61,300 nt of DNA. Source: a virus. Its lineage: Duplodnaviria > Caudoviricetes. Both the position numbers and the translations under genes were made by a program. The DNA lies in IMG/VR virus record IMGVR_UViG_3300021961_006819, positions 1 to 61,300 of that record, one strand, 5' to 3'. Under the pieces are notes generated by a model. That model saw only the letters and a program-made list of their open reading frames with translations. It did no database searches and was not told the DNA's origin. How positions within the stretch are numbered: position 1 is the first letter of the stretch; every line of letters begins with the position of its first letter. Positions 14,311-61,300 of this stretch are shown piece after piece.

Positions 14311-14312
14311 TA

Positions 14313-14810: not shown

Positions 14811-14815
14811 AAATT

Positions 14816-15433: not shown

Positions 15434-15454
15434 TGGGAGTTTTGGAAACGATTC

Positions 15455-18347: not shown

Positions 18348-18366
18348 AAAATATTTTGTATATTTG
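18335..18366 (+). promoter_or_regulatory. Bacteroidetes sigma70-type promoter
   Basis: TTTG 18335, N20, TATATTTG 18359. Confidence 0.7.
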
Positions 18367-18381
18367 TAAAAATAAATTGTT

Positions 18382-19566
18382 ATGAAAGAGCAAATACCTT
18401 TATTTAAAGTGTTTATGAGTCCCACCGCTAAAGATGAGGTGGCTAAAGTTCTTGATAGTGGATTCATAGGTCAAGGTGCTGTTGTAGAAAAATTCGAAAA
18501 GAACCTGTCCGATTTCCTTGAGAACGATAGAGTATTGACTCTCAATTCGGGTACATCAGGTCTTCATCTAGCCTTACATCTTTTGAAAGCTCCAAAGAAA
18601 TCAACTCAAGTATTTCACGGAGTCGCTTCAATTGATTCATATTGGCCCGGTCTTGAAGATGGTGATGAAGTTTTGGCTACATCGCTGACTTGTACGGCTT
18701 CCAATTTTCCAATTCTGGCTAATAATCTAAAGATTAAGTGGGTAGATATCAATCCTACAACATTAAACATTGATTTGGATGACTTGGAAAGAAAGTTAAG
18801 TCCAAAGACAAAAGTTATTATGTTGGTACATTGGGGTGGATATCCGAATGATTTGAATCGTATTCAACAAATTCAAGAAAAAGCCAAACGGATGTATGGT
18901 TTTAAACCTGCTGTTATTGAAGATGGTGCTCACTCATTTGGTACAAGATATATGGGTAAACCACTTGGAAACCACGGAAATATTGTAATGCACTCGTTGC
19001 AGGCAATTAAACATATCACTTCAGTTGATGGTGGTATTTTGATACTACCTCACCAAGAACTTTATAGTAGAGGTAAGTTGATTCGTTGGTATGGTATTGA
19101 CCGAGATTCTAATCGTAAGGATTTCCGATGTGAAGCTGATATTCCGGAATGGGGATTTAAATTCCATATGAATGATGTGAATGCGGCTGTGGGTATAGAG
19201 AACTTGAAACACGCCAAGAATATTATTACGACTCACCAGGACAACGCCAAGTTCTACGACCAAAATCTTCAAAATATTAGTGGTCTTGAAACCTTGAAAC
19301 GAGAGGTTGGCCACGAATCTGCGTTTTGGATTTATTCAATGTTGGTAGATGACCGAGATGGATTTATGAAATGGATGAAAGAATGTAACATCATCGTTTC
19401 TCAAGTACACGAACGAAACGATAAACATTCTTGTGTTAGGGAGTACACATCAGCCCTTCCACAACTTGATAGAACCATTGGTAAGGTAGTTTCAATTCCA
19501 GTTGGTTGGTGGGTTAACGCTGAACAGCGTGAATATATTGTAGATTGTATCAAAAAAGGTTGGTAA
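18382..19566 (+). CDS. DegT/DnrJ/EryC1/StrS sugar aminotransferase
   Basis: NSGTSGLHLAL, IEDGAHSFG and SLQAIKHITSVDGG (PLP lysine). Confidence 0.93.
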   Translation: MKEQIPLFKVFMSPTAKDEVAKVLDSGFIGQGAVVEKFEKNLSDFLENDRVLTLNSGTSGLHLALHLLKAPKKSTQVFHGVASIDSYWPGLEDGDEVLATSLTCTASNFPILANNLKIKWVDINPTTLNIDLDDLERKLSPKTKVIMLVHWGGYPNDLNRIQQIQEKAKRMYGFKPAVIEDGAHSFGTRYMGKPLGNHGNIVMHSLQAIKHITSVDGGILILPHQELYSRGKLIRWYGIDRDSNRKDFRCEADIPEWGFKFHMNDVNAAVGIENLKHAKNIITTHQDNAKFYDQNLQNISGLETLKREVGHESAFWIYSMLVDDRDGFMKWMKECNIIVSQVHERNDKHSCVREYTSALPQLDRTIGKVVSIPVGWWVNAEQREYIVDCIKKGW

Positions 19567-20156
19567 TGTATATTGAACCGAGTATTGAGTCATCCTATCA
19601 TTTTAACAATAAGGGAGCTCATCCAAGTCAAAATGTAAACCTCTATTTTCAACCCAATATTGGTGTTGAAATCTATAACATCGTTATGGAAAAAAAACCA
19701 AAGGTGGTTGTTGAATTTGGAGTTTTGAATGGATTTTCAACAGTATGTATCGCACAAGCTCTTCGTGACCTTGGTGGTGGTAAATTATACTCTTACGATT
19801 TGTGGGAAAAATATCCATATAAGAGAGGTAATAAAGAAATAGTTGCTTCTAATTTAGAATACTACAACTTAACTAAATATGTTGAATTGTGTGATGGTGA
19901 CTTTATGGAATGGTGTAATCAAAGACACGAATGTGATTTACTTCATCTTGATGTAAATAATGATGGTAACATTATTGAGATGGTAAATGAGAAAATAGAT
20001 TGGTGTGATATCATTTTCGAAGGTGGCTCAGTAGAACGAGATAATTGTTGGTGGATGAGAGAATTTAATAGACGCCCAATTAACGAAGTAAAAGAATTAA
20101 CTAACTACAAAGTTTTGGTGGAGGATTTCCCATCAATATCAATTATAGAAAGATAA
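19566..20156 (+). CDS. Class I SAM-dependent methyltransferase
   Basis: VVEFGVLNGFST..YSYD..LLHLD. Confidence 0.8.
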   Translation: MYIEPSIESSYHFNNKGAHPSQNVNLYFQPNIGVEIYNIVMEKKPKVVVEFGVLNGFSTVCIAQALRDLGGGKLYSYDLWEKYPYKRGNKEIVASNLEYYNLTKYVELCDGDFMEWCNQRHECDLLHLDVNNDGNIIEMVNEKIDWCDIIFEGGSVERDNCWWMREFNRRPINEVKELTNYKVLVEDFPSISIIER

Positions 20157-20157
20157 T

Positions 20158-21057
20158 ATGCCTCATTTTTTTAGAATGTATGGTGAGTCGGTTCAAGACC
20201 TTGGGGAAGTTCCTCGTTTAGGTTGGTCTTCCGATGACGCATATATGATTGATGATGAATACCTTCAACGAGGTAGATTTCTGATAATGAGGATGTGTAA
20301 TGGTTTTGGGGATTGGGGTATCATTTCATCGATGCCAAGATTGTTAAAGCAGAAATATCCACATTCTAAAATATATGTTCCAAGTGAAACATTCATAAAA
20401 AAGATATTTGGAGATTCATCTGCTTGGAAACATTGGCCTCAAGCTGAATTAAATTCTTATCGGACATTTGTAAACAACCCATATATAGATGGATTTGTAG
20501 ATTCGTTTGATGATGAGGTCTACCACGACCATTACAGAATATATGACAGGATGAATGTAAATATCCCTTTGGTAAAACAAATGTTGAAATTTTGGGGATT
20601 GTCTGAAGATGAAATGATTGATTATGAACCAGAACTATATTTTAGTGATGATGAAAAAGAACAAGGTGATGCTCTAATCAGAGAATACTTTGGAGAATCT
20701 AACTTTGGTGGATTCATAGCAACAAGTAGTCAGCTTGGGGCTGGTCGTTTCTTTGATGAACATAGAAATAATCTAATCATTAATGAGTTAAAAAAACACG
20801 ACTTAAAATATGTGTACTATGGTGGTGTTGATATAAAAGACACTCCGTTCGGTGAGTATGTTAATGTGGGTTTGGATTTTGCTAAAGTCCCAACTTCATT
20901 GAGAGTTCAATTATACATCCGTTCAAAGGCAAAAGTGAACATTGGGTATCAAAGTTCTATTCACGAATTGATTTGTAGATACTCGCCGATTGTATGTACT
21001 GAAATGGATGGTGGCCCGAGAGAAAATTACTTTGATAAAATAACTTACTTGAAATGA
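20158..21057 (+). CDS. GT9-like glycosyltransferase
   Basis: GFGDWGIISSMPRLLKQKYP, NNPYID, PELYFS. Confidence 0.65.
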   Translation: MPHFFRMYGESVQDLGEVPRLGWSSDDAYMIDDEYLQRGRFLIMRMCNGFGDWGIISSMPRLLKQKYPHSKIYVPSETFIKKIFGDSSAWKHWPQAELNSYRTFVNNPYIDGFVDSFDDEVYHDHYRIYDRMNVNIPLVKQMLKFWGLSEDEMIDYEPELYFSDDEKEQGDALIREYFGESNFGGFIATSSQLGAGRFFDEHRNNLIINELKKHDLKYVYYGGVDIKDTPFGEYVNVGLDFAKVPTSLRVQLYIRSKAKVNIGYQSSIHELICRYSPIVCTEMDGGPRENYFDKITYLK

Positions 21058-22106
21058 AATTAAACTACAAATATATCATAGGAACACATACTATGTTCTA
21101 TGAGATTGAGATTCTATCAGAATTTGTTGACTCTCTGATTCAATGCGCAACCGAGGTTGATAATCGTGAAAACATAACATATGATTTTACATTCAATATC
21201 AGCGAATATCTTGAAGCCGTAGATACTACACAAATCACAAAAGAAAAACTTGTGTGGATGTTTGAGAAACAAATGGAAAGATTGACCAATGTTGGTGTTA
21301 ATGTTAGATACAACATCTATTCAGATGATTCTAAATTGTATAGTATTGCGGACTATCGTAGGGACTTTAATTATCATAATTGTTCAGACCACGATTATTT
21401 GATTTGGGGTGAAACTGATTCACTATTTCCCAAACAATTATTTGAGGGTTTGGAAACAATTAAAAATTATGCCGTAAGTCAAAACATTCATAGATACACG
21501 GTTTGGTTTGCTGAACGAAAGATGTGGGATGACTCTTGGAAACCATTAGAACATATTGATTTTGAAAATGAGAAGTATATTTCCATCAAAGATTTTGCTA
21601 CCGAAGAGGAGTATAAGAAGAAGATTTTAGAATCACCACATAGCATTCGATATGTAATGAATCTTGATGAGATGAATGAAATCAATAACAAGTACGCCGA
21701 TTTTAACATTCAAGTATTACAATATCCAAAGTTTAACGGATGTGGTCTTGTTATGAGTTCCGACTTTGTAAAAGCTGGTGTAAACATACCAAGAGGTATT
21801 TTTGGAGTCGTAGCGGAGGACACCGCTATGATGATATCAGCTCAACAAGTTATGGGTAAGGCATATATTCAGTTTATTGTTAAAAATGTATTGTTAGTCC
21901 ACAATAGAGAACACACTCGTAAGCGAATGTATTGTGTAGATAAGGAAACTCAATCTGAAAGTGGTATGGGTGATTCATATAAACACGGTAAAGGTAACTG
22001 GTTTGATAGAATTCTTGATATGTGTAAACAAAATGTAAATCTATTGGGTTACAGACAAGATAGGTTTTTTACAATAGAAGATTTTGAAAATGAAAATAGA
22101 GCTTGA
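21054..22106 (+). CDS. Putative GT-A glycosyltransferase
   Basis: WGETDS (DxD-like) and AEDTAM; glycan cluster context. Confidence 0.5.
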   Translation: MKLNYKYIIGTHTMFYEIEILSEFVDSLIQCATEVDNRENITYDFTFNISEYLEAVDTTQITKEKLVWMFEKQMERLTNVGVNVRYNIYSDDSKLYSIADYRRDFNYHNCSDHDYLIWGETDSLFPKQLFEGLETIKNYAVSQNIHRYTVWFAERKMWDDSWKPLEHIDFENEKYISIKDFATEEEYKKKILESPHSIRYVMNLDEMNEINNKYADFNIQVLQYPKFNGCGLVMSSDFVKAGVNIPRGIFGVVAEDTAMMISAQQVMGKAYIQFIVKNVLLVHNREHTRKRMYCVDKETQSESGMGDSYKHGKGNWFDRILDMCKQNVNLLGYRQDRFFTIEDFENENRA

Positions 22107-22860
22107 TTATTTTATTGAAGAACCCAATAGAGTAGACCCCAGCGTAATCCCAAGTATTGATGTTTCATATGAGGATGTGAAATCCATCTACAATCAGTCA
22201 AACATCAGTAGAAAGTATAACGACTATTTGAAGGGCAAGTCGGTAATTCTTGTCGGACCTGCATCATACCTTGAAGGTAAAAGTCGTGGTGATGAATTTG
22301 ACTCATTTGATGTTGTTGTTAGATTGAATCGTTCGTATCCGGTCAACAACACAATTGACTATGGAAAAAAATGTGACATCCGATATCATAATATGAGCCA
22401 AAACGCAGCACAAGGTGGTCCGTTTCTCCGTGAACAAATGGAATCTGATGGTGTTATGTTTATATCATCACCATTTCCAAAACACCTATCATATTTTCAT
22501 AATGATATAAAAGTATGTGAATCTCATATGAAAGGTAGTCAGGTTCAGTTTCATCAATGGGCCGACCTCGAACAATTCTTAACACTACATATGATTCTAC
22601 AAACAAGGCCAAATATTGGAGTATGTGCTATTCTTGACTTGTTAAATTACGATATAAAACAACTACATATTAGTGGAATTACCTTTTTTGAAGATGGATA
22701 TTCTTCGGAGTACAAAGATAGGGATGATGACCTCGTTCCAGCATATCATCAGAACAGAGTTATAAATCACGCCCAAAAACCACAAAAAGAATTGATAAAA
22801 TTAATTTCAGAAAATGATAGTAGAATTACTATGGATAAAGAAGTAAAGGAGTCGTTATGA
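22090..22860 (+). CDS. GT29 sialyltransferase-like protein
   Basis: SVILVGPASYL..FDSFDVVVRLN..DYGKKCD (sialylmotif-L-like), HISGITF and C-terminal H. Confidence 0.7.
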   Translation: MKIELDYFIEEPNRVDPSVIPSIDVSYEDVKSIYNQSNISRKYNDYLKGKSVILVGPASYLEGKSRGDEFDSFDVVVRLNRSYPVNNTIDYGKKCDIRYHNMSQNAAQGGPFLREQMESDGVMFISSPFPKHLSYFHNDIKVCESHMKGSQVQFHQWADLEQFLTLHMILQTRPNIGVCAILDLLNYDIKQLHISGITFFEDGYSSEYKDRDDDLVPAYHQNRVINHAQKPQKELIKLISENDSRITMDKEVKESL

Positions 22861-23813
22861 AAATAGCATTTTTTAGTGAGATGGGATTTGTTGGTAAAAT
22901 ACCAAGAACCCATAGAAATATGAGAGTTGAATTTGCTCAGATGTGTGCTCTAAACGCAGACCATTATCCGATGTTACAAATTCAACAAGTAAAAGAAGAA
23001 TATGATTTTGCTATTTTGTTGGTAGGTAAATCCACCAATTTTAGAAACCAAATAGCAAATATTGATGTTGTAACCGAAGCGAGAAGATTTGCCAAAAAGG
23101 TTCTATGGATGCAAGAGGGGCCACATTGGGTATTTCAAGATATGCCATTAGAACATCAGTTTTGGCATTATAGTGTTTTAGCCGCAGCCGATGGATTGTT
23201 AAGTGAAAACAAAACTGACATTCCGTACTTTAAAGGTATAATGGGCGATGATAAGTGGGTTGAGGACATTCCAAGTTTGATGATTACTGACCTTGTTAAA
23301 GATGTTGAGTACGCTGAGAAAGAAGAGAAAGTTGTAGTTGGTGGAAATTTTGTAAGATGGTATGGTGGATTTGATTCTTATGTATGTGCTAGAGATTTAA
23401 ATATTCCAATTTGGGCGCCATCTATGGGGCGGAAGATTGAAAATGAAGATTTGATAGAAGATATGAACTACTTTCCATATATGGAATGGGTTGATTGGAT
23501 TAAGACACTATCATCTTTTAAATACGCAATCCATCTTATGCCAACAACCGGCGCCGGAACATTTCCTATGAATTGTGCTTACTTGGGTATTCCGTGTGTT
23601 GCGTATAACGACTTGGATACTCAAGTTAATTTACACCCCGACTTGTCAGTAAATCCAAGTGATGTTCAGAGTGCTAGAAAACTTCTGAACAAATTAAAGA
23701 ATGACCCTATCTTTTATAAAGATATGAGTGATAAATGTAGATACTTATATAAAGAACACCATTCGGAAGAATCGTTTCTATTAGATTTTAGTAAAAAGTT
23801 ACAAACATTATGA
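22857..23813 (+). CDS. Putative GT-B glycosyltransferase
   Basis: AGTFPMNCAYLGIPCV; cluster context. Confidence 0.6.
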   Translation: MKIAFFSEMGFVGKIPRTHRNMRVEFAQMCALNADHYPMLQIQQVKEEYDFAILLVGKSTNFRNQIANIDVVTEARRFAKKVLWMQEGPHWVFQDMPLEHQFWHYSVLAAADGLLSENKTDIPYFKGIMGDDKWVEDIPSLMITDLVKDVEYAEKEEKVVVGGNFVRWYGGFDSYVCARDLNIPIWAPSMGRKIENEDLIEDMNYFPYMEWVDWIKTLSSFKYAIHLMPTTGAGTFPMNCAYLGIPCVAYNDLDTQVNLHPDLSVNPSDVQSARKLLNKLKNDPIFYKDMSDKCRYLYKEHHSEESFLLDFSKKLQTL

Positions 23814-24997
23814 TTACAAAAAAAGATATTAGTTTTATACAACCATCACGAAACAACTTGAAATACCTCAAGTGGTCGTATGAGGGTATTAGGAAGAATG
23901 CAGGGCCTGAACCTACCATCTGCGTTGCTGATGATTTCAGTAACGATGGAACTTGGGAGTGGTGTGAAGAGATGATGTCTAAAGACCCAAACTTTAAGGC
24001 ACTTCGTAATGAAGGGCCAGCTAGATTGGGTCACACCATTCTCTATGACCGACTTATCAACGAGTTAGCGACAACATCAATCGTAGGTATTTACCACGCA
24101 GATATGTGGTTGTGTCCTGGTGCTCTTGAATCCGTATTGGAACACATCAAACCATTAACGGTAGTATCACTCACTCGTATTGAGCCCGACCTACACCCAG
24201 CCGGACCGGAGAAGGTGTTGATTCGAAACGCACCCACCGAGCCGGAGCATTTTGATGAGGTTTGGTTCAACGATTTCTTCAACGAGTATCTACCTCAAGT
24301 AAAGGGTAAAACTACCGAAGGTATCTTTGCACCTTGGTTCTTGTTCAAAGAGGATTTCACATCCATCGGAGGACACGACCCATTGTATGCTCCTCAATCC
24401 AAAGAGGACTCTGACATCTTCAACCGATTCTTACTAAACGGATATCAGTTTGTTCAAACTTGGGAAGGTGCCGTATTCCATTTGACTTGTAGAGGTTCAC
24501 GATTCAATCCAACATTAACCACGCCTGGTCAAAACTCTAACGAGTGGGAGGCTCAAAACATTAGGTCTACTCGTAATTTTATCCGTAAGTGGGGGCACTT
24601 TGTAAAACACGATAAGTTGATGAAACCTATCGTTCCTCACAAATATGATATTGAGTTTAAGATTACAAATTGTGGTCCTAAACAACTTGAGGAATTAGAA
24701 CCTTGGTGTGATAGAATGACTATTGATATGAGTAAAATGGACATAGATTGGTATATTACCAAAGAACAATCAAACACCAAGTTTGACTTATCTAAAAAGT
24801 TCAATACGAACGAGAATTCAGACATTATTGTACAATTTGACGCTTTACGACTTACAAATCAGTCATATCAGTTCCTTACAAATTTGTCAGAAATCTTCGA
24901 TTTTAATCAATTTGATGTTGGTGAGTATGAATTTGATATATTTAATATAAAGGTCAACCGAGTAAAACATTACGAAGACAGGTTAGTTAAACTATGA
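23810..24997 (+). CDS. GT2 glycosyltransferase
   Basis: VADDFSNDGT, HADM and GGHD..EDSD. Confidence 0.88.
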   Translation: MITKKDISFIQPSRNNLKYLKWSYEGIRKNAGPEPTICVADDFSNDGTWEWCEEMMSKDPNFKALRNEGPARLGHTILYDRLINELATTSIVGIYHADMWLCPGALESVLEHIKPLTVVSLTRIEPDLHPAGPEKVLIRNAPTEPEHFDEVWFNDFFNEYLPQVKGKTTEGIFAPWFLFKEDFTSIGGHDPLYAPQSKEDSDIFNRFLLNGYQFVQTWEGAVFHLTCRGSRFNPTLTTPGQNSNEWEAQNIRSTRNFIRKWGHFVKHDKLMKPIVPHKYDIEFKITNCGPKQLEELEPWCDRMTIDMSKMDIDWYITKEQSNTKFDLSKKFNTNENSDIIVQFDALRLTNQSYQFLTNLSEIFDFNQFDVGEYEFDIFNIKVNRVKHYEDRLVKL

Positions 24998-27141: not shown

Positions 27142-29052
27142 ATGAAAAAACTATCATTGTTGTTCGTGACATTACTCACGACACTAAACTTATTTGGTCA
27201 AAATGGTAAGAATGAAACCTTGACCGCACCGAACTCGAATTCACCATATTTCTTGGTGGATACTTCTTTTATACAGGGTTCGATTCTTGAAGATACAACT
27301 ACTATCTATCTTCACTTTGCTAACCCAACATCTACAAAGATTACCGCATTTCAGGTTAGATTCTTTTACGATACTGCAAACTTTAAAGCCCCTCAAGTAA
27401 AGTGGGGACCTGTTGCGTTATCAGTAACCGACAAGTATGGTGCTTACTACTCATCCTCAAATTGGGTGAATGTTTCTTTGGTATACACCGGAAACTCATC
27501 TACATTCGAGTGGTCTGATGGTGCTATTTTAAAAGTAATCTTCCCTCATAAGAGTGGATTTGACGCATCTGCAGTAGATTCATTGAAGGTTACCCCATTG
27601 AGTTCAAACTTCTCAAACATCGCAACCTCAAATACGGGTGTTGATATGACATTGGGTGTTTACTCTTATAATGGTGAGTTCTTACAACCAACCTTAAACT
27701 TCCCATTCTGGGTTAAAACTGTTTTGGGTGCTGGTACTAAAGGAATCTCCGTTCAATACCATCAAAAGAAAAAGACCGCTTCAACTTGGAATGCCGGTGA
27801 TGTATTCAGAACTGATTCAACCGGTCTTGCTATGATGGAAATCCCATACGACACTTCATTCTATAATGTCAAGTTCACGGTGGCTACCGACTCACTCTCC
27901 GATGGTTCTGCTATCTCAATCGTAGACGCATATAGATTGACTGAAGTATCCGTACAAACTGATACCTTATCTACATACGAGTATCAAGAGGGTGATGTTA
28001 ACTTGGATGGTAACCATTCCATCTCTGACGCATTCTTGGTATTCAATCGTTTGGCTACATCTGCTACAACTTGGAACTCTTTAGTGAGTGGTCAACATAA
28101 CCTTAAATTATTCAGAAAGACCGAATACGATTCAATCGTAAACTCATCCACATTCTTGACCACGAAGAGAGGTACATACACAATCGATAAAACAATCAAC
28201 GGATTGGATTCGGTTGTTTACTATTCTTATGTATTGGGTGATGTTACCTCTACCGGTTACAACACCACATCTTACTTGGTTGCCAAGATTGCTCCGGGCA
28301 ACACGGGAACAACTTATGTTCTTGACCAACAAAAGATATTGCAACACATTGATGACTCTATTCAGTTTGTAATTCCAAAGTTGACTATCTCCGCCGACAA
28401 CACCGCTGACATTCCTGTAACTCTTGTTACTCACGGAAACAAAGTGGGTGCTGCTCAAATCGGATTGGAGTACGACACTAATGTATTCAAGTTCTTGTCT
28501 TTGGATATGGGTTCTACAATGAGTCGCTGGACTTCATTCTTAACTAACGAGAATGGTAAAGTTCTTTGGGGTGGCCACGAATCACAAATGGACCCTGCTC
28601 TTGTAACTCAAAACACTCAAGTGTTCACATTCAAGTTCCAAATCAAATCTACCAATTGGGAAGAAACCCCAATCAGAGTATTCTCTAAAGCTGCTGGTGA
28701 TGAGAACGCAAGAGATTTGAACATCATCAAAACCCCTACCGATGCTACTGTTATTTATCGTAGAAAAAGGGATGATTTGGTTACCGAGTTGGTTGATGGA
28801 TTCCGTGTGTATCCTAACCCAGTTACCGAAGGATATGTATTGTTCGATTACTATATGGAAACTGAACACGAATTGTCAGTTGGTCTGATTAACCCAATGG
28901 GTCAGTTAGTAACCTTTGACAAACAACAAGTATACCAAGGTGGTGAGGTTGTCACCGGTATGTTGAATATGGATAATGTTGCTAATGGAAACTACATTCT
29001 CCTTCTTTCAACCCCAACAAAAACCAAATATTATAGAATCAGTAAATTTTAA
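27142..29052 (+). CDS. Secreted cohesin/dockerin-like protein with T9SS type A C-terminal domain
   Basis: Signal peptide; cohesin-like ITAFQVRFFYD and IPVTL..AAQIGLEYD; dockerin-like GDVNLDGNHSISDA; CTD FRVYPNP...NGNYILL. Confidence 0.75.
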   Translation: MKKLSLLFVTLLTTLNLFGQNGKNETLTAPNSNSPYFLVDTSFIQGSILEDTTTIYLHFANPTSTKITAFQVRFFYDTANFKAPQVKWGPVALSVTDKYGAYYSSSNWVNVSLVYTGNSSTFEWSDGAILKVIFPHKSGFDASAVDSLKVTPLSSNFSNIATSNTGVDMTLGVYSYNGEFLQPTLNFPFWVKTVLGAGTKGISVQYHQKKKTASTWNAGDVFRTDSTGLAMMEIPYDTSFYNVKFTVATDSLSDGSAISIVDAYRLTEVSVQTDTLSTYEYQEGDVNLDGNHSISDAFLVFNRLATSATTWNSLVSGQHNLKLFRKTEYDSIVNSSTFLTTKRGTYTIDKTINGLDSVVYYSYVLGDVTSTGYNTTSYLVAKIAPGNTGTTYVLDQQKILQHIDDSIQFVIPKLTISADNTADIPVTLVTHGNKVGAAQIGLEYDTNVFKFLSLDMGSTMSRWTSFLTNENGKVLWGGHESQMDPALVTQNTQVFTFKFQIKSTNWEETPIRVFSKAAGDENARDLNIIKTPTDATVIYRRKRDDLVTELVDGFRVYPNPVTEGYVLFDYYMETEHELSVGLINPMGQLVTFDKQQVYQGGEVVTGMLNMDNVANGNYILLLSTPTKTKYYRISKF

Positions 29053-49844: not shown

Positions 49845-51527
49845 ATGATTTCGGTAGGGTTTTCAATAGGACACGATAGAGGCGCAGTTCTTATTCGTGA
49901 TGGTGAAGTTGTTGTAGGTATTTCGAGGGAGAGATTATCACGAATCAAATCGGATGAATCTTTTCAGAATGAGATGATTCCTGTGGATTGTATTGATTAT
50001 TGTCTTCAGTCAGAAGGATTGACTTATGATGATGTAGACATTTATTGTTATAATTCCACAATGGTTGAGGATATTGAAGCTCAATTTATAGAGTTGTTAA
50101 ATCAACCAATTGAAAAATTATATTTTATTCCCCATCACCTAGCGCACGCTTATTCAACATACTATTCATCACCATTCGAATCATCGGTGGTGGTTGTTGC
50201 TGACGCTATGGGTAGCGTTGCTACCAAAGATAGTAAAACTTGGGAATGGTTTTCCAAAGGTTACAATCTTACCGATACTTCTGATGAAGAATATGATTGG
50301 GCAGAGGGGATTACAATTTACGATGTATCTGACAACAATTTTAATGAGGTCTATAAAAAATGGATTAAGTTTGAATTTCCGTGGGAAGTTGAAGGAGAAC
50401 AAACATCGGTGGGTGGATACTATGGAATCGGAACACTTCAGTTAGTATACAACCCAATCAATAATACTTGGCAAGCCGGTAAATTGATGGGACTTGCTTC
50501 ATATGCGGAATCGGAGTATGTGGATTCAATTCCACGCCAGACATATCGTGATGGTATGGATGTCTTTATCCCAACAATGAAACACCGACCTGATGTAGAT
50601 TATCGTGATGACTTTCAGTTAAAGGCAAATGTTGCAGGAGTTTATCAGAGAGAACAAGAAGAAATCTCTATGGAATTGGCTCGTATAGGTAAGGAACTTA
50701 CAAATCAAGAAAACATTTGTGTTGCTGGTGGTTCGTTTCTAAATTGTAATACCAACGAAAAAATTATCAAAAGTGAACTATTCCGAGGTACATACTTTGT
50801 ACCACCCGCAGATGATAGTGGAATTCCATTGGGATGTGCTTGGGGTGGATATATTAAATTAAACCCCGAGTTTAAGAAACCAATACGAATTCAATCACCA
50901 TATTTGGGTAGAGAATATTCTCGACAGGAAATCATAGACGCCATTCAAGCAAATGATATTGTCCATCACATTTACTATCCAAACTTTAGTGAATTGGCTG
51001 ATAGAGTTGCTGAATTGTTAGATGAGGGTAAAGTCATTGGTTGGATGCAAGGTGGTTCGGAAATTGGACCTCGTGCTCTTGGTAATCGTTCAATCCTTGC
51101 AAATCCAACAAAATCTTGGATGACTAATTATGTAAATGAATTGAAAGGTAGAGAGTGGTATAGACCATTCGCACCATCAGTTCTACACGATAAACAATCT
51201 CAAGTTTTTGACTTGGATACATTCTCACCATATATGTTAGTTACGGCTAATGTCAAAGATGAGTGGAAATCTAAAATTCCTGCGGTGACTCACATTGATG
51301 GAACATCTCGTTACCAATCAGTCAGTCCCTTTATGAATCCACGCTATTACACTCTGATTGAATCCTTTTACTCAAGAACGGGTGTTCCATTGGTACTAAA
51401 TACATCATTCAACGGACCGGGAGAACCCATCGTTGAAACACCCGAAAACGCAATAAATACATTTCTAAATCGTGGATTACACTATTTAGTAATAGGTAAC
51501 TATCTAATCTTTAAAATCAACAAGTAA
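49845..51527 (+). CDS. Carbamoyltransferase (NodU/CmcH/TobZ family)
   Basis: HHLAHA, GKLMGLA, AGGSFLN, GPRALGNRSIL, RPFAP and LNTSFN. Confidence 0.95.
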   Translation: MISVGFSIGHDRGAVLIRDGEVVVGISRERLSRIKSDESFQNEMIPVDCIDYCLQSEGLTYDDVDIYCYNSTMVEDIEAQFIELLNQPIEKLYFIPHHLAHAYSTYYSSPFESSVVVVADAMGSVATKDSKTWEWFSKGYNLTDTSDEEYDWAEGITIYDVSDNNFNEVYKKWIKFEFPWEVEGEQTSVGGYYGIGTLQLVYNPINNTWQAGKLMGLASYAESEYVDSIPRQTYRDGMDVFIPTMKHRPDVDYRDDFQLKANVAGVYQREQEEISMELARIGKELTNQENICVAGGSFLNCNTNEKIIKSELFRGTYFVPPADDSGIPLGCAWGGYIKLNPEFKKPIRIQSPYLGREYSRQEIIDAIQANDIVHHIYYPNFSELADRVAELLDEGKVIGWMQGGSEIGPRALGNRSILANPTKSWMTNYVNELKGREWYRPFAPSVLHDKQSQVFDLDTFSPYMLVTANVKDEWKSKIPAVTHIDGTSRYQSVSPFMNPRYYTLIESFYSRTGVPLVLNTSFNGPGEPIVETPENAINTFLNRGLHYLVIGNYLIFKINK

Positions 51528-51528
51528 A

Positions 51529-52119
51529 ATGAAAAAAATTACACTCTTTCTAACTCTTCTTGTCCTTACGACAACATCCGTATTTGGACAACTCCGTGAT
51601 TCCATTTGGTGGAACACTCCGTACTTCGAAATTGTTTATTCCGAGGTTCTCGAACAACCCAAGTGGGTTCACTATCGTGTAGCTTGTCCAACCGGCAACG
51701 CAAGTCGTAGTGGTATGGATTTCTACAAAGAACAAGGAATCAAAACATCAGACCACAAAGATTACGAAAACAATGTGTGGGATAAGGGTCATATGGCACC
51801 TGCTGCAGATTTCAATTGTACTCGTGATATGTTGTACGAAACATTCACTTATATGAACTGCGCTCTTCAACATCAGTCACTCAATCGTGGTGTATGGAAA
51901 CATTTGGAAGCCAGAGAACGACAACTCGCCAGTCAGTTCCCAGTAGTTGATATTACAATCCGTATCGTATTTGATAAGAAACCAACCAAGGTCGAGGGAG
52001 GGGCTTCAATTCCGAGTGGCTTTTATAAAACTATTAAGTACGGAAATGTGACCGAGATTTACTATTTCCCAAACACAACCCCAACTTCAACGGACTTTAA
52101 CACTTATCGTACTAATTGA
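51529..52119 (+). CDS. Secreted DNA/RNA non-specific endonuclease
   Basis: Signal peptide; DKGHMAPA, TF.Y.N..Q..LNRG.W..LE. Confidence 0.9.
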   Translation: MKKITLFLTLLVLTTTSVFGQLRDSIWWNTPYFEIVYSEVLEQPKWVHYRVACPTGNASRSGMDFYKEQGIKTSDHKDYENNVWDKGHMAPAADFNCTRDMLYETFTYMNCALQHQSLNRGVWKHLEARERQLASQFPVVDITIRIVFDKKPTKVEGGASIPSGFYKTIKYGNVTEIYYFPNTTPTSTDFNTYRTN

Positions 52120-53165: not shown

Positions 53166-54740
53166 ATGAAACGATTCCTCACATCCCTACTGATTCTCGC
53201 ATCATTTGCAAGTTTTGGTTCTCACCTCGCCGGTGGTGATATTCAATACAAATATATTGGAGATTCAACCGGAGTAAATAGACACTACAAAGTAATCTTA
53301 CGAGTATATAGGGATGTGACCGGAATCGGAATGCCCACTACGGAGAATGTGACGGTTTCATCAGGATGTTTTACAAATATAAATGTTCCGATGAACCTCA
53401 CCGCCGGAAGTGGTGTGGTATCTCCAACTTTATTCGACTGTGTGAATCCATCTCCAAATGTAAAAACCTTGGAGGTGTATCGTTATATAGGGTATGTAAT
53501 TTTACCAAGTAATTGTTCTGATATTACATTTTGGTATTCGAATTGTTGTAGACCGCCAGGAATTACAAATATTAACACTTCAAATGGTGGGGGTTCGGAT
53601 GGATTCTATTTTGATGCAAAATTAAACAATACTCAAGGTCAGAACTCATCTCCTATATTTGTATCAGAGCCAGTTCGAGCATTTTGTGTGGGTAATCCTT
53701 TCAGTTGGAAACAATCCACAATTGAGTACGATGGTGATTCGGTGGTGTATTCTCTTATTAATTGTAGAGAAAACGCATATCCAAACCAAACCGACATTCC
53801 ATTTGACGCGGGGTGGAGTAAGAATCAGCCGGTTACATCCGCATATTTTAGTATAAATCCCAATACAGGTCTTATCTCATTCCTACCAACCAACCAAGAA
53901 ATTGATGTCTTGTCGGTATTGGTAGAAGAATATAGATGGGATACGATTAATTTGTGGTGGTATCCGATAGGAACTGCTTCCAGAGATATGATGATATCAA
54001 TCGCATCAACTTGTAATCCAATCGCAATGAGTGGGGTTCAGTTTGATTCGAATACATATCCTCTTGATTCAATCACAGGGTTACCATATAAAGAAGTACA
54101 ATGTGGTGATACTGCGTTCGGAATCAAATTCCATATTGCATTAGATGGATACTCAATCAATGACATAGATTTCCGTATGACCAATACAATGACCTCACAG
54201 CCAGAAGCGATTACAAAGATTTGGTCGGATGTGGATGTGAATTATGAAACCGATTCAGTTCGTGTGGTTATGTTCGCTCCATTCAGTCAAGAAGGAAATT
54301 ATTACCTATATTCCAAGAAGGGGAACGATGGGAACACGCTTATAAACAAATGTGGAATCCCAATGAACGAGTTTGATACAATATTAGTCAAAGTTGTGAA
54401 TTGTCCACCTTGTCCACCAGACCCACCTATTGGAACTATTGACCAAGAATTGGAGGGAATCCCACCAAGTCCACTACCACAACCCGTGGTGATTCCGAAT
54501 GTGATGACTCCAAATGGTGATAATAAAAATGATTTGTTCACTATTGAAAATTTAATGGACTGGGAATATAGAGAATTAATTATATTCAATCGTTGGGGTG
54601 GTATTGTATATTACAATTACAACTATCAAAATGATTGGGATGGTGGAAGCGTTTCAGATGGTGTTTACTTTGGTGTATTGAATATATCCTATAAAGATAT
54701 TATAGAAGAACACCACTTTGATGTAACTATAACGAGATAA
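53166..54740 (+). CDS. Secreted protein with T9SS type B (gliding-motility-associated, CHU_C) C-terminal domain
   Basis: Signal peptide, SHLAGGDIQY, NCCR, NSSPIF; CTD IPNVMTPNGDNKND..IFNRWG..WDG..GVYF. Confidence 0.88.
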   Translation: MKRFLTSLLILASFASFGSHLAGGDIQYKYIGDSTGVNRHYKVILRVYRDVTGIGMPTTENVTVSSGCFTNINVPMNLTAGSGVVSPTLFDCVNPSPNVKTLEVYRYIGYVILPSNCSDITFWYSNCCRPPGITNINTSNGGGSDGFYFDAKLNNTQGQNSSPIFVSEPVRAFCVGNPFSWKQSTIEYDGDSVVYSLINCRENAYPNQTDIPFDAGWSKNQPVTSAYFSINPNTGLISFLPTNQEIDVLSVLVEEYRWDTINLWWYPIGTASRDMMISIASTCNPIAMSGVQFDSNTYPLDSITGLPYKEVQCGDTAFGIKFHIALDGYSINDIDFRMTNTMTSQPEAITKIWSDVDVNYETDSVRVVMFAPFSQEGNYYLYSKKGNDGNTLINKCGIPMNEFDTILVKVVNCPPCPPDPPIGTIDQELEGIPPSPLPQPVVIPNVMTPNGDNKNDLFTIENLMDWEYRELIIFNRWGGIVYYNYNYQNDWDGGSVSDGVYFGVLNISYKDIIEEHHFDVTITR

Positions 54741-57357: not shown

Positions 57358-57437
57358 GGATTCGGAGGGCTACGGAAACCCTTATCAGAGGATTCAGAGC
57401 TGGAAAACGGCTGGATGATTTACCACCAAAATTTATA

Positions 57438-57460
57438 GACACCCAATAGGGTGTTTTTTT
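57438..57460 (+). terminator. Intrinsic terminator
   Basis: GACACCC-AATA-GGGTGTT followed by TTTTT. Confidence 0.75.
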
Positions 57461-57848
57461 ATGCCCAACCCTCCAATTCTCGATTCTCGAATCACGAATC
57501 CAAAAATATTACCTTTAAAAACCCTCAAAAAAGGGGAGAAAGTGGGGAAAGGTGGGGAATAATGGTAAACACTCTTTCGTATAACTCATATTTGGTAAGT
57601 GTATTTCATTATTGGTAAACACACCAGCACCCCACACATAGGGGTCAGAATCCCCAAATCATTTAATTTTTCCCTAATTAACACAAACACACCTCCCATT
57701 TTATACTGGTATTATTATTTAACACTAATTGAGCACATATACTATGTCTTTTTTGGCGGAAAGCAAAATTTTTGCTGGGAAAGTTATTAACAGCCCTTTG
57801 TGGATAACTTTTTCCCATAGATTTTCTCTATAGCGACCACCCAAAAAC

Positions 57849-57963
57849 CCTGACATAATGACTTAAAGTAATACTTTAAGCGTGGAACATTTCTTAAAGT
57901 AAAGCTTTAAGGCCCGACCTGACACGATGTCACTTAAAGTAATACTTTAACTCCGTGGAACAT
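57849..57963. repeat. Duplicated unit containing three copies of palindrome CTTAAAGTAATACTTTAAG
   Basis: Palindromes at 57862, 57893 (variant) and 57933; units CCTGACA..palindrome..CGTGGAACAT at 57849-57890 and 57918-57963. Confidence 0.85.
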
Positions 57964-57998
57964 TGTTGATAACTTTTTTGAAAAAATAAGCCGCAAAG

Positions 57999-58030
57999 CT
58001 TGTGCAATTCGGAAATTTGTCGTATATTTG
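57999..58030 (+). promoter_or_regulatory. Sigma70-type promoter
   Basis: TTG ending at 58002, N20, TATATTTG 58023. Confidence 0.55.
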
Positions 58031-58150
58031 TTATGTTGGGGGCGCTGACTATATAAAAAAAATGCGATTAAAAGCTCAAACGCGTGCAAACCCAACGGGA
58101 ATGGGGGTTCCCGATGTGGATAACTTTGTTGATAACTTTATTTTATTTTG

Positions 58151-58182
58151 TTTGGATATTAAAAGAAATAGTGTTATCTTTG
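58151..58182 (+). promoter_or_regulatory. Sigma70-type promoter
   Basis: TTTG 58151, N20, TATCTTTG 58175. Confidence 0.7.
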
Positions 58183-58193
58183 TATAGTAAGAT

Positions 58194-58376
58194 ATGTTAA
58201 GAGATATAAAAATTAATTACGCTAGCAAGGCTGGCAGTATTACATTCACCAAAGTAGGTGAACTAACGAAGTCAGAAGTCAACGAATGTCTAGCCTATTG
58301 TTGGTGGAGATTCAGAAAATCAATTAGGAAGGAATCTCTTTCCGAATGTGGGATGGAGTTCCAAGTAAAGATTTAA
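58194..58376 (+). CDS. Small early protein
   Basis: Follows promoter; 60 aa. Confidence 0.55.
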   Translation: MLRDIKINYASKAGSITFTKVGELTKSEVNECLAYCWWRFRKSIRKESLSECGMEFQVKI

Positions 58377-58450
58377 CAATTTAATAACATAAAAGGCTTG
58401 TGGATATGAAAATTATTCACTACATTTGTATAGTAAGATTAAGAGATATG
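58373..58450 (+). promoter_or_regulatory. Promoter with TTAACA/ATAACA direct repeat and GTAAGATTAAGAGATATG leader
   Basis: TTAACA 58373, ATAACA 58384, CTTG 58397, TACATTTG 58421. Confidence 0.65.
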
Positions 58451-58660
58451 ATTGAGTTAAAAGATTGTTACCAAGCGTTCCCCCAAATGGACTCCAATGT
58501 GTATTGGGTGTATAAGAATGGCCACAAAGTTAGTGTGGTGGTTACTGATAGTGAAGAACGGGCTATTAAGTCCTATAAGAGAGAGGAAGCTCGTAAGAGC
58601 CGTATCTCCAACCTTATCGCTACCCATATCAGTATGGAGAACGGAATGTTTGGATTGTAA
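58448..58660 (+). CDS. Small early protein
   Basis: Start ATG 58448 after conserved leader. Confidence 0.6.
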   Translation: MIELKDCYQAFPQMDSNVYWVYKNGHKVSVVVTDSEERAIKSYKREEARKSRISNLIATHISMENGMFGL

Positions 58661-58699
58661 AAAAGTGAAATAAAAACTAAATAGCTAATAGTATATAGT

Positions 58700-58879
58700 A
58701 TGAAGTATAACCAAGGGTATATCCCCAAAATTAATTACTGGGTAGAGAAACTACTCAAGGCATCAACGCCATTAGAACAGGCAAACGCATTAAGTAAGGT
58801 AAGGTACTTCCAGAAGAGGCATAAAGAGGTGTACGGGTCAGTCCCCACCATCCACGACCTCTCATATGGAGTAGAGTAA
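58700..58879 (+). CDS. Small hypothetical protein, 59 aa
   Basis: Not in ORF track; MKYNQGYIPKINYW..KVRYFQKRHKEVYG. Confidence 0.5.
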   Translation: MKYNQGYIPKINYWVEKLLKASTPLEQANALSKVRYFQKRHKEVYGSVPTIHDLSYGVE

Positions 58880-59079
58880 TAGAGATAGCCCACAAACCCC
58901 GTAAGCCGTTATAGGCGATGAAAGACACTCGCGCAGGGGGGGTGGGCATTATCTTGTAAACCTATGAGTATCAATGAGTTATGAACGCGTGTAGTCCGTT
59001 TTCATATCGAGCCCGGTTTTTTCGCTGGGGAGAAAAGTCCCCTCCAAGCCCGTGAGGACACGAAATGAAGTAAAATAAA

Positions 59080-59111
59080 TTTGGTTAATTCAGATAAATG
59101 TTGTATATTTG
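59080..59111 (+). promoter_or_regulatory. Bacteroidetes sigma70-type promoter
   Basis: TTTG 59080, N20, TATATTTG 59104. Confidence 0.75.
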
Positions 59112-59117
59112 TAAACT

Positions 59118-59423
59118 ATGGAAAAGATAATTAGAGATGGTAAGGTAGGTGTACTGATATCTGCCGGATGGGGAGCTGGGTTCTCCTCGTGGGGATTTCC
59201 CCTTGAAGCAGTTTTCTCCCCTACCCTAATCGATATGGTAGAGAGGGAAGATTACCACTCTGCTGTGGAGTATTGTGAAACCAATTGGAAGGGCAACTAT
59301 TGTGGTGGTATCTTTGACTTGGAAGTTTATTGGGTACAAGAAGGTCGTAAGTTTCAGATTACGGAATACGATGGTGCTGAAACTATTGAGTTTGAGGATG
59401 AAATACATTGGATAACCGCCTGA
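59118..59423 (+). CDS. Conserved phage hypothetical protein
   Basis: VLISAGWGAGFSSW..ITEYDGAE. Confidence 0.7.
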   Translation: MEKIIRDGKVGVLISAGWGAGFSSWGFPLEAVFSPTLIDMVEREDYHSAVEYCETNWKGNYCGGIFDLEVYWVQEGRKFQITEYDGAETIEFEDEIHWITA

Positions 59424-59638
59424 TGAAGAACCCCCTATACTATGTACAAGCTTACCGATGGGGTAAGATGGACAACCATTCATATGTGGTTGGGGTATGG
59501 GATAATTCTACCCAAGCCCAATCAGCCGCTGTGATGGAAGAGGTCTATCGTGGTGGTAAATACGAATGTGTTGTGTACCTATGTGAACTTAATCAACCCC
59601 TTGAACCTTGGACCGATGATTCAACCGATGACCTCTGA
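59423..59638 (+). CDS. Hypothetical protein
   Basis: AYRWG..HSYVVGV..RGGKYEC; TGATG-coupled. Confidence 0.6.
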   Translation: MKNPLYYVQAYRWGKMDNHSYVVGVWDNSTQAQSAAVMEEVYRGGKYECVVYLCELNQPLEPWTDDSTDDL

Positions 59639-59867
59639 ACAATTATCAGCTCTTCTAAAGATGTGTTATCATTCTGACTATAAGGTAGATAGAGGTTCTC
59701 GTTGGTATCATCTCCATCATATGGGTTATGAACCCTCTACGGATACTCACACCTTTAGGATGTCCTACTCTGAAGGTATAGATGTAGATTTTAATTCTCG
59801 TACCCATATACACACTATTGAATCAGAGTCCCTTCGTTATATGTATAATCATTATATGAGCAAATAA
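59628..59867 (+). CDS. Hypothetical protein
   Basis: Start ATG 59628. Confidence 0.5.
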   Translation: MTSEQLSALLKMCYHSDYKVDRGSRWYHLHHMGYEPSTDTHTFRMSYSEGIDVDFNSRTHIHTIESESLRYMYNHYMSK

Positions 59868-59902
59868 TTTTTTATGTCACCAATTTTTAACACCAACGAG
59901 AA

Positions 59903-60034
59903 ATGAAACAAGAAGAACCAAGCAACGATATGTGCGAATGCAAAATCCCACAACCACAAATCAAAGTCAGTGAAAATGGAACATATGCGTACTGCACAAA
60001 ATGCATAAGAACAATTAACACTAACAAGAAATGA
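59903..60034 (+). CDS. Cassette ORF: small Cys-rich (CxC..CxxC) protein, 43 aa
   Basis: Not in ORF track; MKQEEPSNDMCECK..YCTKCIRTINTNKK. Confidence 0.55.
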   Translation: MKQEEPSNDMCECKIPQPQIKVSENGTYAYCTKCIRTINTNKK

Positions 60035-60234
60035 AACAGACAGCAGTAGAGTGGCAACACATTGAGTTATCAAAATTTCTTTATGGAAAATCAGAATTTA
60101 CAGACGCAAATGATATTCTAATTAAAGCCAAAGAAATGGAGAAGGAGCAGATGATTGATTGGTATGCTACGGGGCAGGCAGATACAGTAAATATGTATGA
60201 GCAACACCTCAACAAAACCGTTAACACCAAATAG
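60031..60234 (+). CDS. Cassette ORF: MKQTAVEW-type small phage protein
   Basis: MKQTAVEW..AKEMEKEQM. Confidence 0.65.
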   Translation: MKQTAVEWQHIELSKFLYGKSEFTDANDILIKAKEMEKEQMIDWYATGQADTVNMYEQHLNKTVNTK

Positions 60235-60236
60235 AG

Positions 60237-60755
60237 ATGAAAACACCAATACAAGAGTTGATTGAGAAACTTAAGGACTTATATTATTATGACCTTAAAG
60301 AAGGCATACGAAATGGGGCGATACTTGTGGATATTGAGTTGTCGCAAGAACTTCTTGAGAAAGAGAAGAAATTTATGGCAGATGTTTGGCTTGATGCACA
60401 AGTAGCACATCAAGGAGATGGATACATTAAACCATCTGACCCAACATTTGATGAGTATTATGAAAAAACCTTTAACACCAAAAGAGAAATGAAAGAGTAT
60501 AGAAAGATTGCAACAGTCAAAGCTAAGTTGTTTGAAAAAGGCGATGAAGATGGAATGATTCACAAAGACGGTATACTTGGAGTAATGCAAGATGCTAAGT
60601 ACGGACTTAAACCAGACTTGGTGCCATATATCTCAACATTAAAGAATCAGCATCACAGGGGTGAGTTTGGAAAACACTACCTGTGTGTTGGAATCAAAGG
60701 TGAGAAATGGCTCGTAGAGAAAGAAATCTTTGAGAGTACATATGAAGCTATCTAA
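60237..60755 (+). CDS. In-frame fusion of two cassette ORFs (second begins at ATG 60489)
   Basis: MKTPIQELIE..FDEYYEKTFNTKRE then MKEYRKIATVKA; internal repeat copy at 60471. Confidence 0.65.
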   Translation: MKTPIQELIEKLKDLYYYDLKEGIRNGAILVDIELSQELLEKEKKFMADVWLDAQVAHQGDGYIKPSDPTFDEYYEKTFNTKREMKEYRKIATVKAKLFEKGDEDGMIHKDGILGVMQDAKYGLKPDLVPYISTLKNQHHRGEFGKHYLCVGIKGEKWLVEKEIFESTYEAI

Positions 60756-60786
60756 AACCTTTAACACCAAATAGAAATGGCAAAAT

Positions 60787-60883
60787 AGTCAGGTGGCGGA
60801 TTGGGTAGACGCTAAAACGGTAATAGTCACGTAGATTACCATAGTTTAAAACGTACGAACAGGTTCGATTCCTGTCCTGACTA
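60787..60883 (+). ncRNA. tRNA-like RNA with canonical acceptor, D and T arms but aberrant anticodon region
   Basis: AGTCAGG/CCTGACT acceptor; TGGCGGATTGGGTAGACGC D arm; ACAGG-TTCGATT-CCTGT T arm; GGTAAT/ATTACC stem with 10-nt loop. Confidence 0.7.
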
Positions 60884-60906
60884 CAAGCCTTTAACACCAA
60901 AGAGAA

Positions 60907-61179
60907 ATGAAACATATTATTGAACAATTAAAAGAACAGAGAGAAAAAGCAAAACATAAATTTGTTGAAATGTCTATAATTAAGAGATGTAGCAAAAACG
61001 ATTCAGATATTCCAGATACTGATTCATACCTTGACGAGGTAATAGCAATAGATGAAGCAATATCTGTTTTGGAAAATCACCTACAAAACAAATTGACAGA
61101 AAGTCTATCAGACCACACGAATAGTTATACCTATTACCCACAGGAACACAAAACAATCTTTAACACCAAAGAGAAATGA
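60907..61179 (+). CDS. Cassette ORF: hypothetical protein
   Basis: Starts and ends in junction repeats (FNTKEK stop). Confidence 0.6.
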   Translation: MKHIIEQLKEQREKAKHKFVEMSIIKRCSKNDSDIPDTDSYLDEVIAIDEAISVLENHLQNKLTESLSDHTNSYTYYPQEHKTIFNTKEK

Positions 61180-61300
61180 CACAAGAAGAATTAGCAGATA
61201 AGATTCTTGCACGTTACGAAGATGACAGAGAATATCATTTTTTCCGGGTAGATAGAGAATGGATTATTGAAGCAATGATTGAGTTTGCAAATAAAGTTAA
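61176..61300 (+). CDS. Cassette ORF, 3'-truncated
   Basis: MTQEELADKIL..WIIEAMIEFA runs off the window. Confidence 0.55.
   Translation, partial: MTQEELADKILARYEDDREYHFFRVDREWIIEAMIEFANKV

Follow-up and report, generated by a model that had tools for sequence, protein, structure and literature searches.

What does a short repeat do when it closes one small gene, opens the next, and recurs between unrelated genes in many phages? The question is raised by the last 1.4 kb of the Caudoviricetes record IMGVR_UViG_3300021961_006819, whose 61,300 nt constitute the window analyzed here. A first-pass annotation, made from the letters alone, had described this region as an integron-like array of small gene cassettes joined by seven copies of a 20-bp repeat, each ending in the ATG of the following cassette. 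Seven copies do lie where they had been placed, all on the + strand (59886, 60014, 60220, 60471, 60760, 60890, and 61159), but only two of them are exact; four carry 1–4 substitutions, and one has an extra A. Consecutive copies are spaced by 128, 206, 251, 289, 130, and 269 nt, and ATG forms the 3′ end of 7/7, as claimed. Five copies have no more than 3 mismatches, against 0.03 expected by chance, and 0/100 shuffles reach five. Since a search of the 61.3-kb record allowing up to 5 edits gave no convincing copy outside the array, the repeat forms one cluster in the record. With moderate confidence, we infer that it is a translation-coupling gene joint that doubles as a short-homology crossover site.

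Compared across 210 distinct instances, the conserved motif is approximately 27 nt long, AAACC-TTTAACACCAAAGAGAAATG-A(A)A, and information drops to none beyond about −5 and +3. ATG ends 234 of 246 instances, and the open reading frames (ORFs) that start there are short (median of 57.5 amino acids [aa] among 216 complete downstream ORFs). The upstream ORF stops at a TGA overlapping this ATG in 106/214 instances, which gives the protein ending ...FNTKEK, at a TAA inside TTTAAC, 12 nt before the ATG, in 52/214, and at a TAG variant in 6/214. Because TAA and TGA are both present in nearly every copy, regardless of which is used, the joint provides a stop in two of the three frames and the start of the following gene. 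The copies at 60014, 60220, and 61159 encode the upstream C-termini ...RTINTNKK, ...KTVNTK, and ...IFNTKEK, respectively, in agreement with the endings INTNKK, VNTK, and FNTKEK read earlier. No window copy contains an inverted repeat or hairpin, and the motif as a whole is asymmetric.

The exact 20-mer occurs in at least 122 stretches of IMG/VR and in only seven bacterial-genome contigs, four of which are metagenome-assembled genomes (MAGs) of Flavobacteriaceae, Flavobacteriales, or Saprospiraceae. The loci that contain it hold 233 copies at up to 3 mismatches, nearly always several per locus, on one strand and 100–500 nt apart, and five large records (76–212 kb) have 1–6 copies each, in one local cluster. 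The DNA polymerase of the window has no match in three of these five records (two rated complete) and matches only weakly in the remaining two, and many loci have a neighborhood of ERF and PDDEXK exonuclease genes instead; the joint is therefore common to phages with different backbones. A blastn search of 58000–61300 against 50,697 records of cultured phages gave no match, and the canonical motif is absent from the cultured phages searched. One of them, Flavobacterium phage FPSV-D35 of F. psychrophilum, has a single 18/20 copy, the last three bases of which are the ATG start codon of a hypothetical gene. Literature searches with the 20-mer and three of its sub-strings returned no paper containing the sequence, and broader searches found no description of the motif. 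In 29 of the 119 contigs, the exact motif is no more than 150 nt away from a contig end, as opposed to 3.1 expected, an excess that fits either array differences within a sample or cassettes common to co-occurring phages.

The genes between the joints are diverse. The 240 ORFs that start at a motif fall into 36 families and 83 singletons, and neighbors are paired in many different orders. The largest family (F1; 40/240 downstream ORFs) encodes proteins of approximately 75 aa of the form MKTPMQELIE...AESMLEKEKE...YYNETFNTKEK, for which a model of three helices was predicted (predicted local distance difference test [pLDDT] of 87); no structure in the PDB matched this model at E ≤ 0.001. Among 8000 protein clusters scored, at least 4263 match F1 at E ≤ 0.001, all of them unnamed. 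F1 proteins start with MKTPMQ, and their native ending is the joint itself (...YYNETFNTKEK in 79 of the 120 best hits), which suggests that the joint began as the junction of tandem F1 genes.

The F1 genes also reveal the level at which the motif is conserved. When F1 genes were retrieved through their N-terminus alone, the joint stood upstream in 45/61 and at the gene end in 48/61. In the 32 F1 genes that end in FNTKE[KR], the terminal codons are TTT (32/32), AAC (30/32), ACC (30/32), AAA (52/52), and GAG (32/32), whereas the same codons are used internally in those genes at 73, 61, 46, 71, and 47 per cent, respectively. Because synonymous sites in the motif are almost invariant in comparison with internal codons, the constraint acts on the nucleic acid. 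The F1 proteins themselves are mosaic, with N-terminal, middle (EKEKEV...), and C-terminal parts variously combined; crossovers therefore also occur inside genes, and some fall within conserved parts of F1. In another family (F5), a long form of 70 aa (L012, L023, L059, and L084) contains a decayed inner joint (IETQNAKE), and the short form of 42 aa (L039 and L050) looks like the product of a deletion between the inner and the terminal joint.

In comparisons between contigs, the motif coincides with 418 of 1554 left alignment ends and with 398 of 1517 right ones, whereas 4.9 per cent of random positions fall on it. Among 23 simple indels between related contigs, six have all four junctions on motif copies, with an overlap of 24–28 nt (pairs L006/L009, in which the flanks are 99–100 per cent identical, L011/L117, L038/L117, L019/L103, L019/L086, and L023/L083), and a further six have one junction at a motif.

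The window's own lineage was retrieved via the gene just upstream of the array and includes contigs L136, L137, L138, L141, and L144. L138 is 91 per cent identical up to 59914, nine bases beyond copy 1, and then continues with two different cassettes. The backbone genes of L141 are 71 per cent identical to those of the window, as opposed to 100.000 per cent identity over 516 nt from 60757 to the L141 contig end; the identical block begins 3 nt before the copy at 60760 and includes the tRNA-like RNA and cassettes 6 and 7 described below. L144, a contig with a different record id, has the same join. Together with the motif-bounded indels and a tRNA-like copy in another contig (L129), these joins bear out the earlier proposal that cassettes are gained, lost, and re-paired as units at the repeat. 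Homology with L136 and L137 stops at the stop codon of the anchor gene, where L137 has other genes. The window and L138 retain the opening three or four codons of the gene that comes next in L137 (MSPQIEQRPWG...), fused in frame to the first joint; this fragment and the joint form a 10-codon ORF, MSPIFNTNEK* (59874..59906, +), whose TGA overlaps the ATG of cassette 1. The first copy is consistently an AACGAG variant among the window's relatives. This variant was considered as a hybrid formed at the fused gene start, an idea dropped because it occurs in other contexts, including inner array positions. Homologs of the ORF at 59118–59423 (41–46 per cent identity) have no motif within 5 kb, and the NUDIX gene used as a query found no relatives.

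In the window, the array is preceded by three motif-less backbone genes (59118–59423, 59423–59638, and 59616–59867; 59118..59867 overall, +) with ordinary overlaps and 71–91 per cent nucleotide identity in relatives. All further elements are likewise on the + strand. Copy 1 (TTTAACACCAACGAGAAATG; 59886..59905, 1 mismatch) opens cassette 1 (59903..60034), which encodes 43 aa with a CxC...CxxC pattern and has no Pfam or PHROG match. Copy 2 (ATTAACACTAACAAGAAATG; 60014..60033, 4 mismatches) encodes INTNKK and a TGA overlapping the ATG of cassette 2 (60031..60234; 67 aa). Copy 3 (60220..60239, 3 mismatches), a TAG variant, leads into an in-frame fusion of cassettes 3 and 4 (60237..60755; 172 aa), the first 84 aa of which belong to F1 (MKTP...FNTKEK). 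The fusion arises because the extra A in copy 4 (60471..60491, 21 nt) removes the in-frame stop, so that the copy is read through; cassette 4 has its own ATG at 60489. The extra A is present in contigs of two sequencing runs, and the relative L080 keeps a normal stop at the joint equivalent to 60471–60491. Copy 5 (60760..60779, 1 mismatch), another TAG variant, is the left edge of the block that is 100 per cent identical in L141 and L144, and is followed by the RNA cassette (60787..60883). Copies 6 (60890..60909) and 7 (61159..61178) are exact. They open cassette 6 (60907..61179; 90 aa with the C-terminus IFNTKEK), whose protein is identical in L141, and cassette 7 (61176..61300), which has the same start in L141 and is interrupted by the end of the window, 122 nt past the last motif copy. 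No terminal repeat was found in the record, which stops at 61300. Contigs from the RNA library of one run span 60336–61300, with DNA carry-over as a possible source.

The cargo is not limited to proteins. The RNA at 60787–60883 scores 34.1 bits against the Rfam tRNA family, above the gathering score of 29, in support of the tRNA-like RNA noticed in the first-pass annotation; ARAGORN made no tRNA call for this interval. Its acceptor, D, and T arms are intact, and 36 nt stand in place of a 17-nt anticodon arm, with the insert forming a 6-bp hairpin with a 10-nt loop. A 93 per cent identical copy occupies positions 451–549 of L129 (oriented), from motif to motif and with other neighbors, and a 100 per cent identical copy is found in the diverged relative L141 (1737–1867). 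A second, nearly invariant element of approximately 75 nt follows the motif in eight contigs (L080, L030, L129, L014, L007, L052, L123, and L029). It mimics a 27-aa ORF and consists of a closing stem, GACUCCG...CGGAGUC, followed by a U-run; it has no match in Rfam, and the cassette it forms is a structured RNA or a terminator. Cassette proteins of the window have no match in Pfam, and two have only weak PHROG matches (E 0.002–0.003) of unknown function. Their Atlas neighbors are unnamed viral clusters.

How the cassettes are expressed bears on what the joint does. The pattern TTTG-N19-TAnnTTTG, which we take to be the Bacteroidota promoter consensus, occurs 14 times in the window, where 2.48 occurrences would be expected, and 10 of these sites are on the + strand. 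One, at 59080..59111 (+), precedes the operon that contains the array, and none lies inside 59886–61300; as judged by this consensus, and by pattern only, the cassettes are promoterless behind one upstream promoter match. Promoter activity of the motif itself was considered and rejected: sigma-70-type hits are at the level of shuffled sequences (27 vs. 25.3), and if TTAACA in the motif were a −35 box, the matching −10 would sit within the next ORF. An ATGA overlap is also the commonest junction among the phage's other genes (10/64), at which no conserved upstream sequence was seen. The predicted unpaired probability from −22 to 0 is 0.61 at the motif, compared to 0.54 at 50 other starts and 0.47–0.51 in the flanks. 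Pairing with 16S rRNA, as at viral reinitiation sites, was also rejected, because the best run with G-U pairs allowed is 8 nt (Flavobacteriales 16S rRNA) and shuffles mostly reach 7–9. From its position, the stop–start overlap, the promoterless array, and the slightly higher predicted accessibility, we infer that the repeat is plausibly a translation-start or coupling site.

The enzymes that might act at the joint were sought nearby. No integrase or resolvase family is represented among the ORFs scanned in the window, which is a fragment, and a scan of 150 of the 176 ORFs that flank the motif in other loci found no tyrosine or serine recombinase (E ≤ 1e-5); the first-pass annotation, too, had seen no linked recombinase. 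Within 2 kb of the motif in other contigs are genes for a PDDEXK exonuclease (DUF3799) in 20 loci, ERF in 2, and YqaJ in 1. A minimal pairing segment of 23–27 bp has been described for Red-beta-type recombinases, versus 31–34 bp for RecA (PMC3945230). Because the conserved length of the motif and the 24–28-nt overlaps at indels match the 23–27-bp segment, general short-homology recombination is the economical reading.

The comparisons above establish the anatomy of the joint, its spread, the constraint on its nucleotides, and the breakpoints located on it. If the joint both couples translation and serves as a crossover site, its approximately 27 nt would, in the mRNA, end the upstream frame by a TGA in one frame or a TAA in a second, and the next AUG would lie on or just behind the stop. 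Ribosomes would thereby be passed from gene to gene along a single promoter-driven operon, in a host that does not use Shine–Dalgarno sites. As unrelated cargo is bordered by this one sequence in many co-occurring phages, the joint would also be a crossover site, at which short-homology recombination could delete, insert, or exchange whole cassettes and leave expression intact. Single-strand-annealing or other general recombinases of the phage, or copy-choice during replication, are candidate routes, and small proteins, the tRNA-like RNA, and another small structured RNA could all move without a dedicated recombinase. The joint probably originated as the 3′ end of the abundant MKTP...YYNETFNTKEK family together with the start of a neighboring gene, and would then have spread with cassettes among unrelated phages of Flavobacteria-type hosts.

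A number of observations weigh against this interpretation. Of the simple indels, 11/23 are located away from the motif, and among segment replacements 0/20 have all four junctions at motifs and 7/20 have one; the plasticity of the region must therefore have other routes as well. Breakpoints in phages are in any case inclined to sit at the ends of genes, and alignment ends are drawn to conserved stretches of whatever kind. Chimeric assembly of metagenome contigs within common cassettes is possible in principle. Peaks of depth at motif copies, loose ends, and contig "joints" (e.g., 60779 to 60888) were considered as signs of excision and rejected, because the contigs match by only 23–31 nt; with sides this short, the "joints" may derive from other motif-sharing genomes rather than from cassette excision. 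The association with exonuclease and ERF genes may reflect the conserved gene order of one lineage, and the closest relatives, L136 and L137, lack the motif in the available DNA, which for L137 includes 3.1 kb downstream. Adjacent copies in one array have a median of only 13 identical nt, and just 17 of 130 pairs reach 23 nt or more; homologous exchange would hardly be efficient over such short stretches. This divergence may keep arrays from collapsing, and it implies that something else holds each copy near the consensus. Bacteroidetes are described as lacking Shine–Dalgarno sites and preferring A at −3 (PMC6847099), whereas the motif carries G at −3; the joint is therefore not simply an optimal start site.

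That something beyond exchange must hold the copies near the consensus is the reason to keep some weight on another explanation, which we nevertheless regard as unlikely. The motif could primarily be an expression signal read by a specific factor, be it a translational regulator resembling RegA of T4 (repressor or activator), another RNA-binding protein, or a processing nuclease that cleaves the polycistronic transcript and so frees the embedded RNAs, with recombination as a by-product. Some 27 nt kept even at synonymous sites, in hundreds of copies and in unrelated phages, exceed what a crossover patch needs, and adjacent copies are too unlike for efficient exchange. RNA cassettes, too, have the motif on both sides, and in three loci it directly adjoins the 3′ end of a true tRNA. 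The factor itself is harder to place. There is no RegA-like protein among the window ORFs scanned; the ORF at 9125–9541, behind the clamp-loader genes, was considered for this role and dropped, as it has only weak matches to DUF1599 and phrog_1485. Motif phages have no obvious common gene set, so the factor would need to be the host's, and complementarity to 16S rRNA is no better than that of shuffled motifs.

Two other explanations seem very improbable to us. According to one, the array is a site-specific, integron-like cassette system, and the motif is where a recombinase that has escaped recognition, encoded by another part of the phage genome or by the host, would act. Promoterless cassettes in one orientation behind one promoter, indels that in some cases are bounded precisely by the motif, and an AACGAG variant consistently in first place among the window's relatives are what such a system would produce, but the recombinase is missing from the ORFs scanned in the window and from 150 of 176 flanking ORFs, the asymmetric motif forms no inverted repeat or hairpin, many breakpoints are off the motif, and AACGAG also occurs at inner positions. 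The other, to which we attach equally little credence, denies the repeat a function of its own and sees in it the conserved C- and N-termini of tandem paralogs, spread by duplication. F1, a family of at least 4263 clusters, does natively end in ...YYNETFNTKEK and start with MKTPMQ, and the motif is upstream of 45/61 F1 genes and at the end of 48/61. However, F1 accounts for just 40/240 ORFs; the motif is carried by 35 other families, 83 singletons, and two kinds of RNA cassettes. Moreover, 52/214 upstream ORFs stop at the TAA, so that the peptide is not encoded, and synonymous sites are nearly fixed. The possibility, already raised in the first-pass annotation, that the repeat is only a shared C-terminal peptide of paralogs is thus largely refuted.

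A more far-reaching proposal can be made, which we offer tentatively and consider doubtful as it stands. The joint may be a common "plug" for many unrelated phages of Flavobacteria-type hosts, such that any small gene or RNA bearing it could be inserted into the array of any other such phage and expressed at once. The arrays would then be an integrase-free counterpart of integrons and an accessory pool across phage families, with the copies held to the consensus by a host or phage factor that reads the RNA or DNA.

The remainder of the window provides context for the array. All window genes are on the + strand. PHROG matches include a family-B DNA polymerase, a sliding clamp, clamp-loader subunits, an exonuclease, and GroEL, a set that we take to be a T4-type replication module. 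A DruA-like protein (Pfam PF14236, 2.2e-24) is encoded at 6140–7330, between the sliding-clamp and clamp-loader genes. Type IX secretion system (T9SS) sorting domains are present in two proteins, one with cohesin and Por_Secre_tail and one with CHU_C; the genes of the T9SS-domain proteins and of a signal-peptide-bearing nuclease are located at 27142–29052, 51529–52119, and 53166–54740. The T9SS sorting domains, the promoter pattern, the MAG contigs with the 20-mer, and the FPSV-D35 copy point to a host from the Bacteroidota, most likely the Flavobacteriia.

Several other features were observed. Eight near-identical, promoter-like sites of 32 nt, TTTGG.A.T...TATTTTGTATATTTG, stand on the + strand in front of gene blocks (389, 5390, 9566, 18335, 43704, 45296, 49223, and 59080) and look like a phage-specific class of strong host-type promoters. 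A gene-poor stretch at 57400–58450 contains the repeats TTGTGGATAACTTT (four copies), the palindromic ACTTAAAGTAATACTTTAA (three copies), and TTTGTATAGTAAGAT (two copies); contig joints "go back" between about 58390 and 58018, and the stretch is possibly an origin or regulatory region. A large sugar-modification cluster (11624–24997 and 49845–51527) encodes several glycosyltransferases, one of them family-29 sialyltransferase-like, a cytidylyltransferase fused to an HMGL-like domain, an aminotransferase, a methyltransferase, and a carbamoyltransferase.

The joint is an unusually clean case of a boundary sequence, one fixed element of 27 nt in at least 119 contigs with different backbones, and recent exchange is visible at it, as a cassette block of 100 per cent identity next to a backbone of 71 per cent. 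It supplies a concrete sequence for asking how hosts without Shine–Dalgarno sites pass ribosomes between genes, and it offers a test of the shortest homology that phage recombinases can use in nature. It also flags a large, as yet unstudied reservoir of small phage genes and RNAs as mobile cargo, including one family with thousands of members, and is a possible scar-free linker for engineering Flavobacterium phages.

Among known systems, integrons suggested the initial description of the array. Integron cassettes are promoterless, stand in one orientation behind an upstream promoter, and vary in content, and they are moved by the IntI tyrosine recombinase at attC hairpins. The cassettes described here are similarly promoterless, in one orientation, and variable among relatives, but no integrase was found among the ORFs scanned, the array has no attC-type hairpin repeat, and the joint overlaps coding ends; the term "integron-like" is thus appropriate only as an analogy and not as a family assignment. 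The stop–start overlap itself (106/214) resembles the ATGA overlaps at which termination–reinitiation has been described (Huber et al. 2019; PMC6728339). Ordinary overlaps, in contrast, lack a long conserved sequence and are not common to unrelated genes.

The start-associated sequences (SAS) of Cluster K mycobacteriophages are likewise short, asymmetric repeats directly before the starts of different gene families and absent from the host genome, and a role in translation initiation has been proposed for them (PMC3203893). SAS are described as 13-bp, partly Shine–Dalgarno-like sequences with 11–19 dispersed copies, whereas copies of the joint lie in one tandem array, include a stop and a start, and mark breakpoints; SAS are not described as recombination joints (PMC3203893).

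The closest published system is that of the promoter-early stem-loops (PeSLs) of T4-type phages, and the window, too, has what we take to be a T4-type replication module. PeSLs are described as intergenic elements of approximately 100 bp with a sigma-70 promoter and a terminator stem-loop (Arbiol et al. 2010; PMC2839356), and mini-circles have been reported for them (Arbiol et al. 2010; PMC2839356; Comeau et al. 2014; PMC4122927). Like the joint, they are short conserved elements between small orphan genes in a hyperplastic region, relatives differ by element-flanked genes, and exchange between elements has been proposed to delete, insert, and move genes with their expression signals (Arbiol et al. 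2010; PMC2839356; Comeau et al. 2014; PMC4122927). The joint differs in being approximately 27 nt long, in having no promoter match and no stem-loop, and in overlapping coding ends; it would act at translation, if at all, and it is common to phages with unrelated backbones. The decades-old proposal that conserved sequences at gene boundaries, amid otherwise unrelated DNA, allow general recombination to generate mosaic joints describes the same arrangement, and such sequences are said to be unidentifiable at most phage mosaic joints (PMC3029335). Distinguished by being a single fixed motif with a built-in stop and start, present as one array per genome in several phage types, the joint is a clear instance of such short conserved boundary sequences, found in at least 119 contigs.

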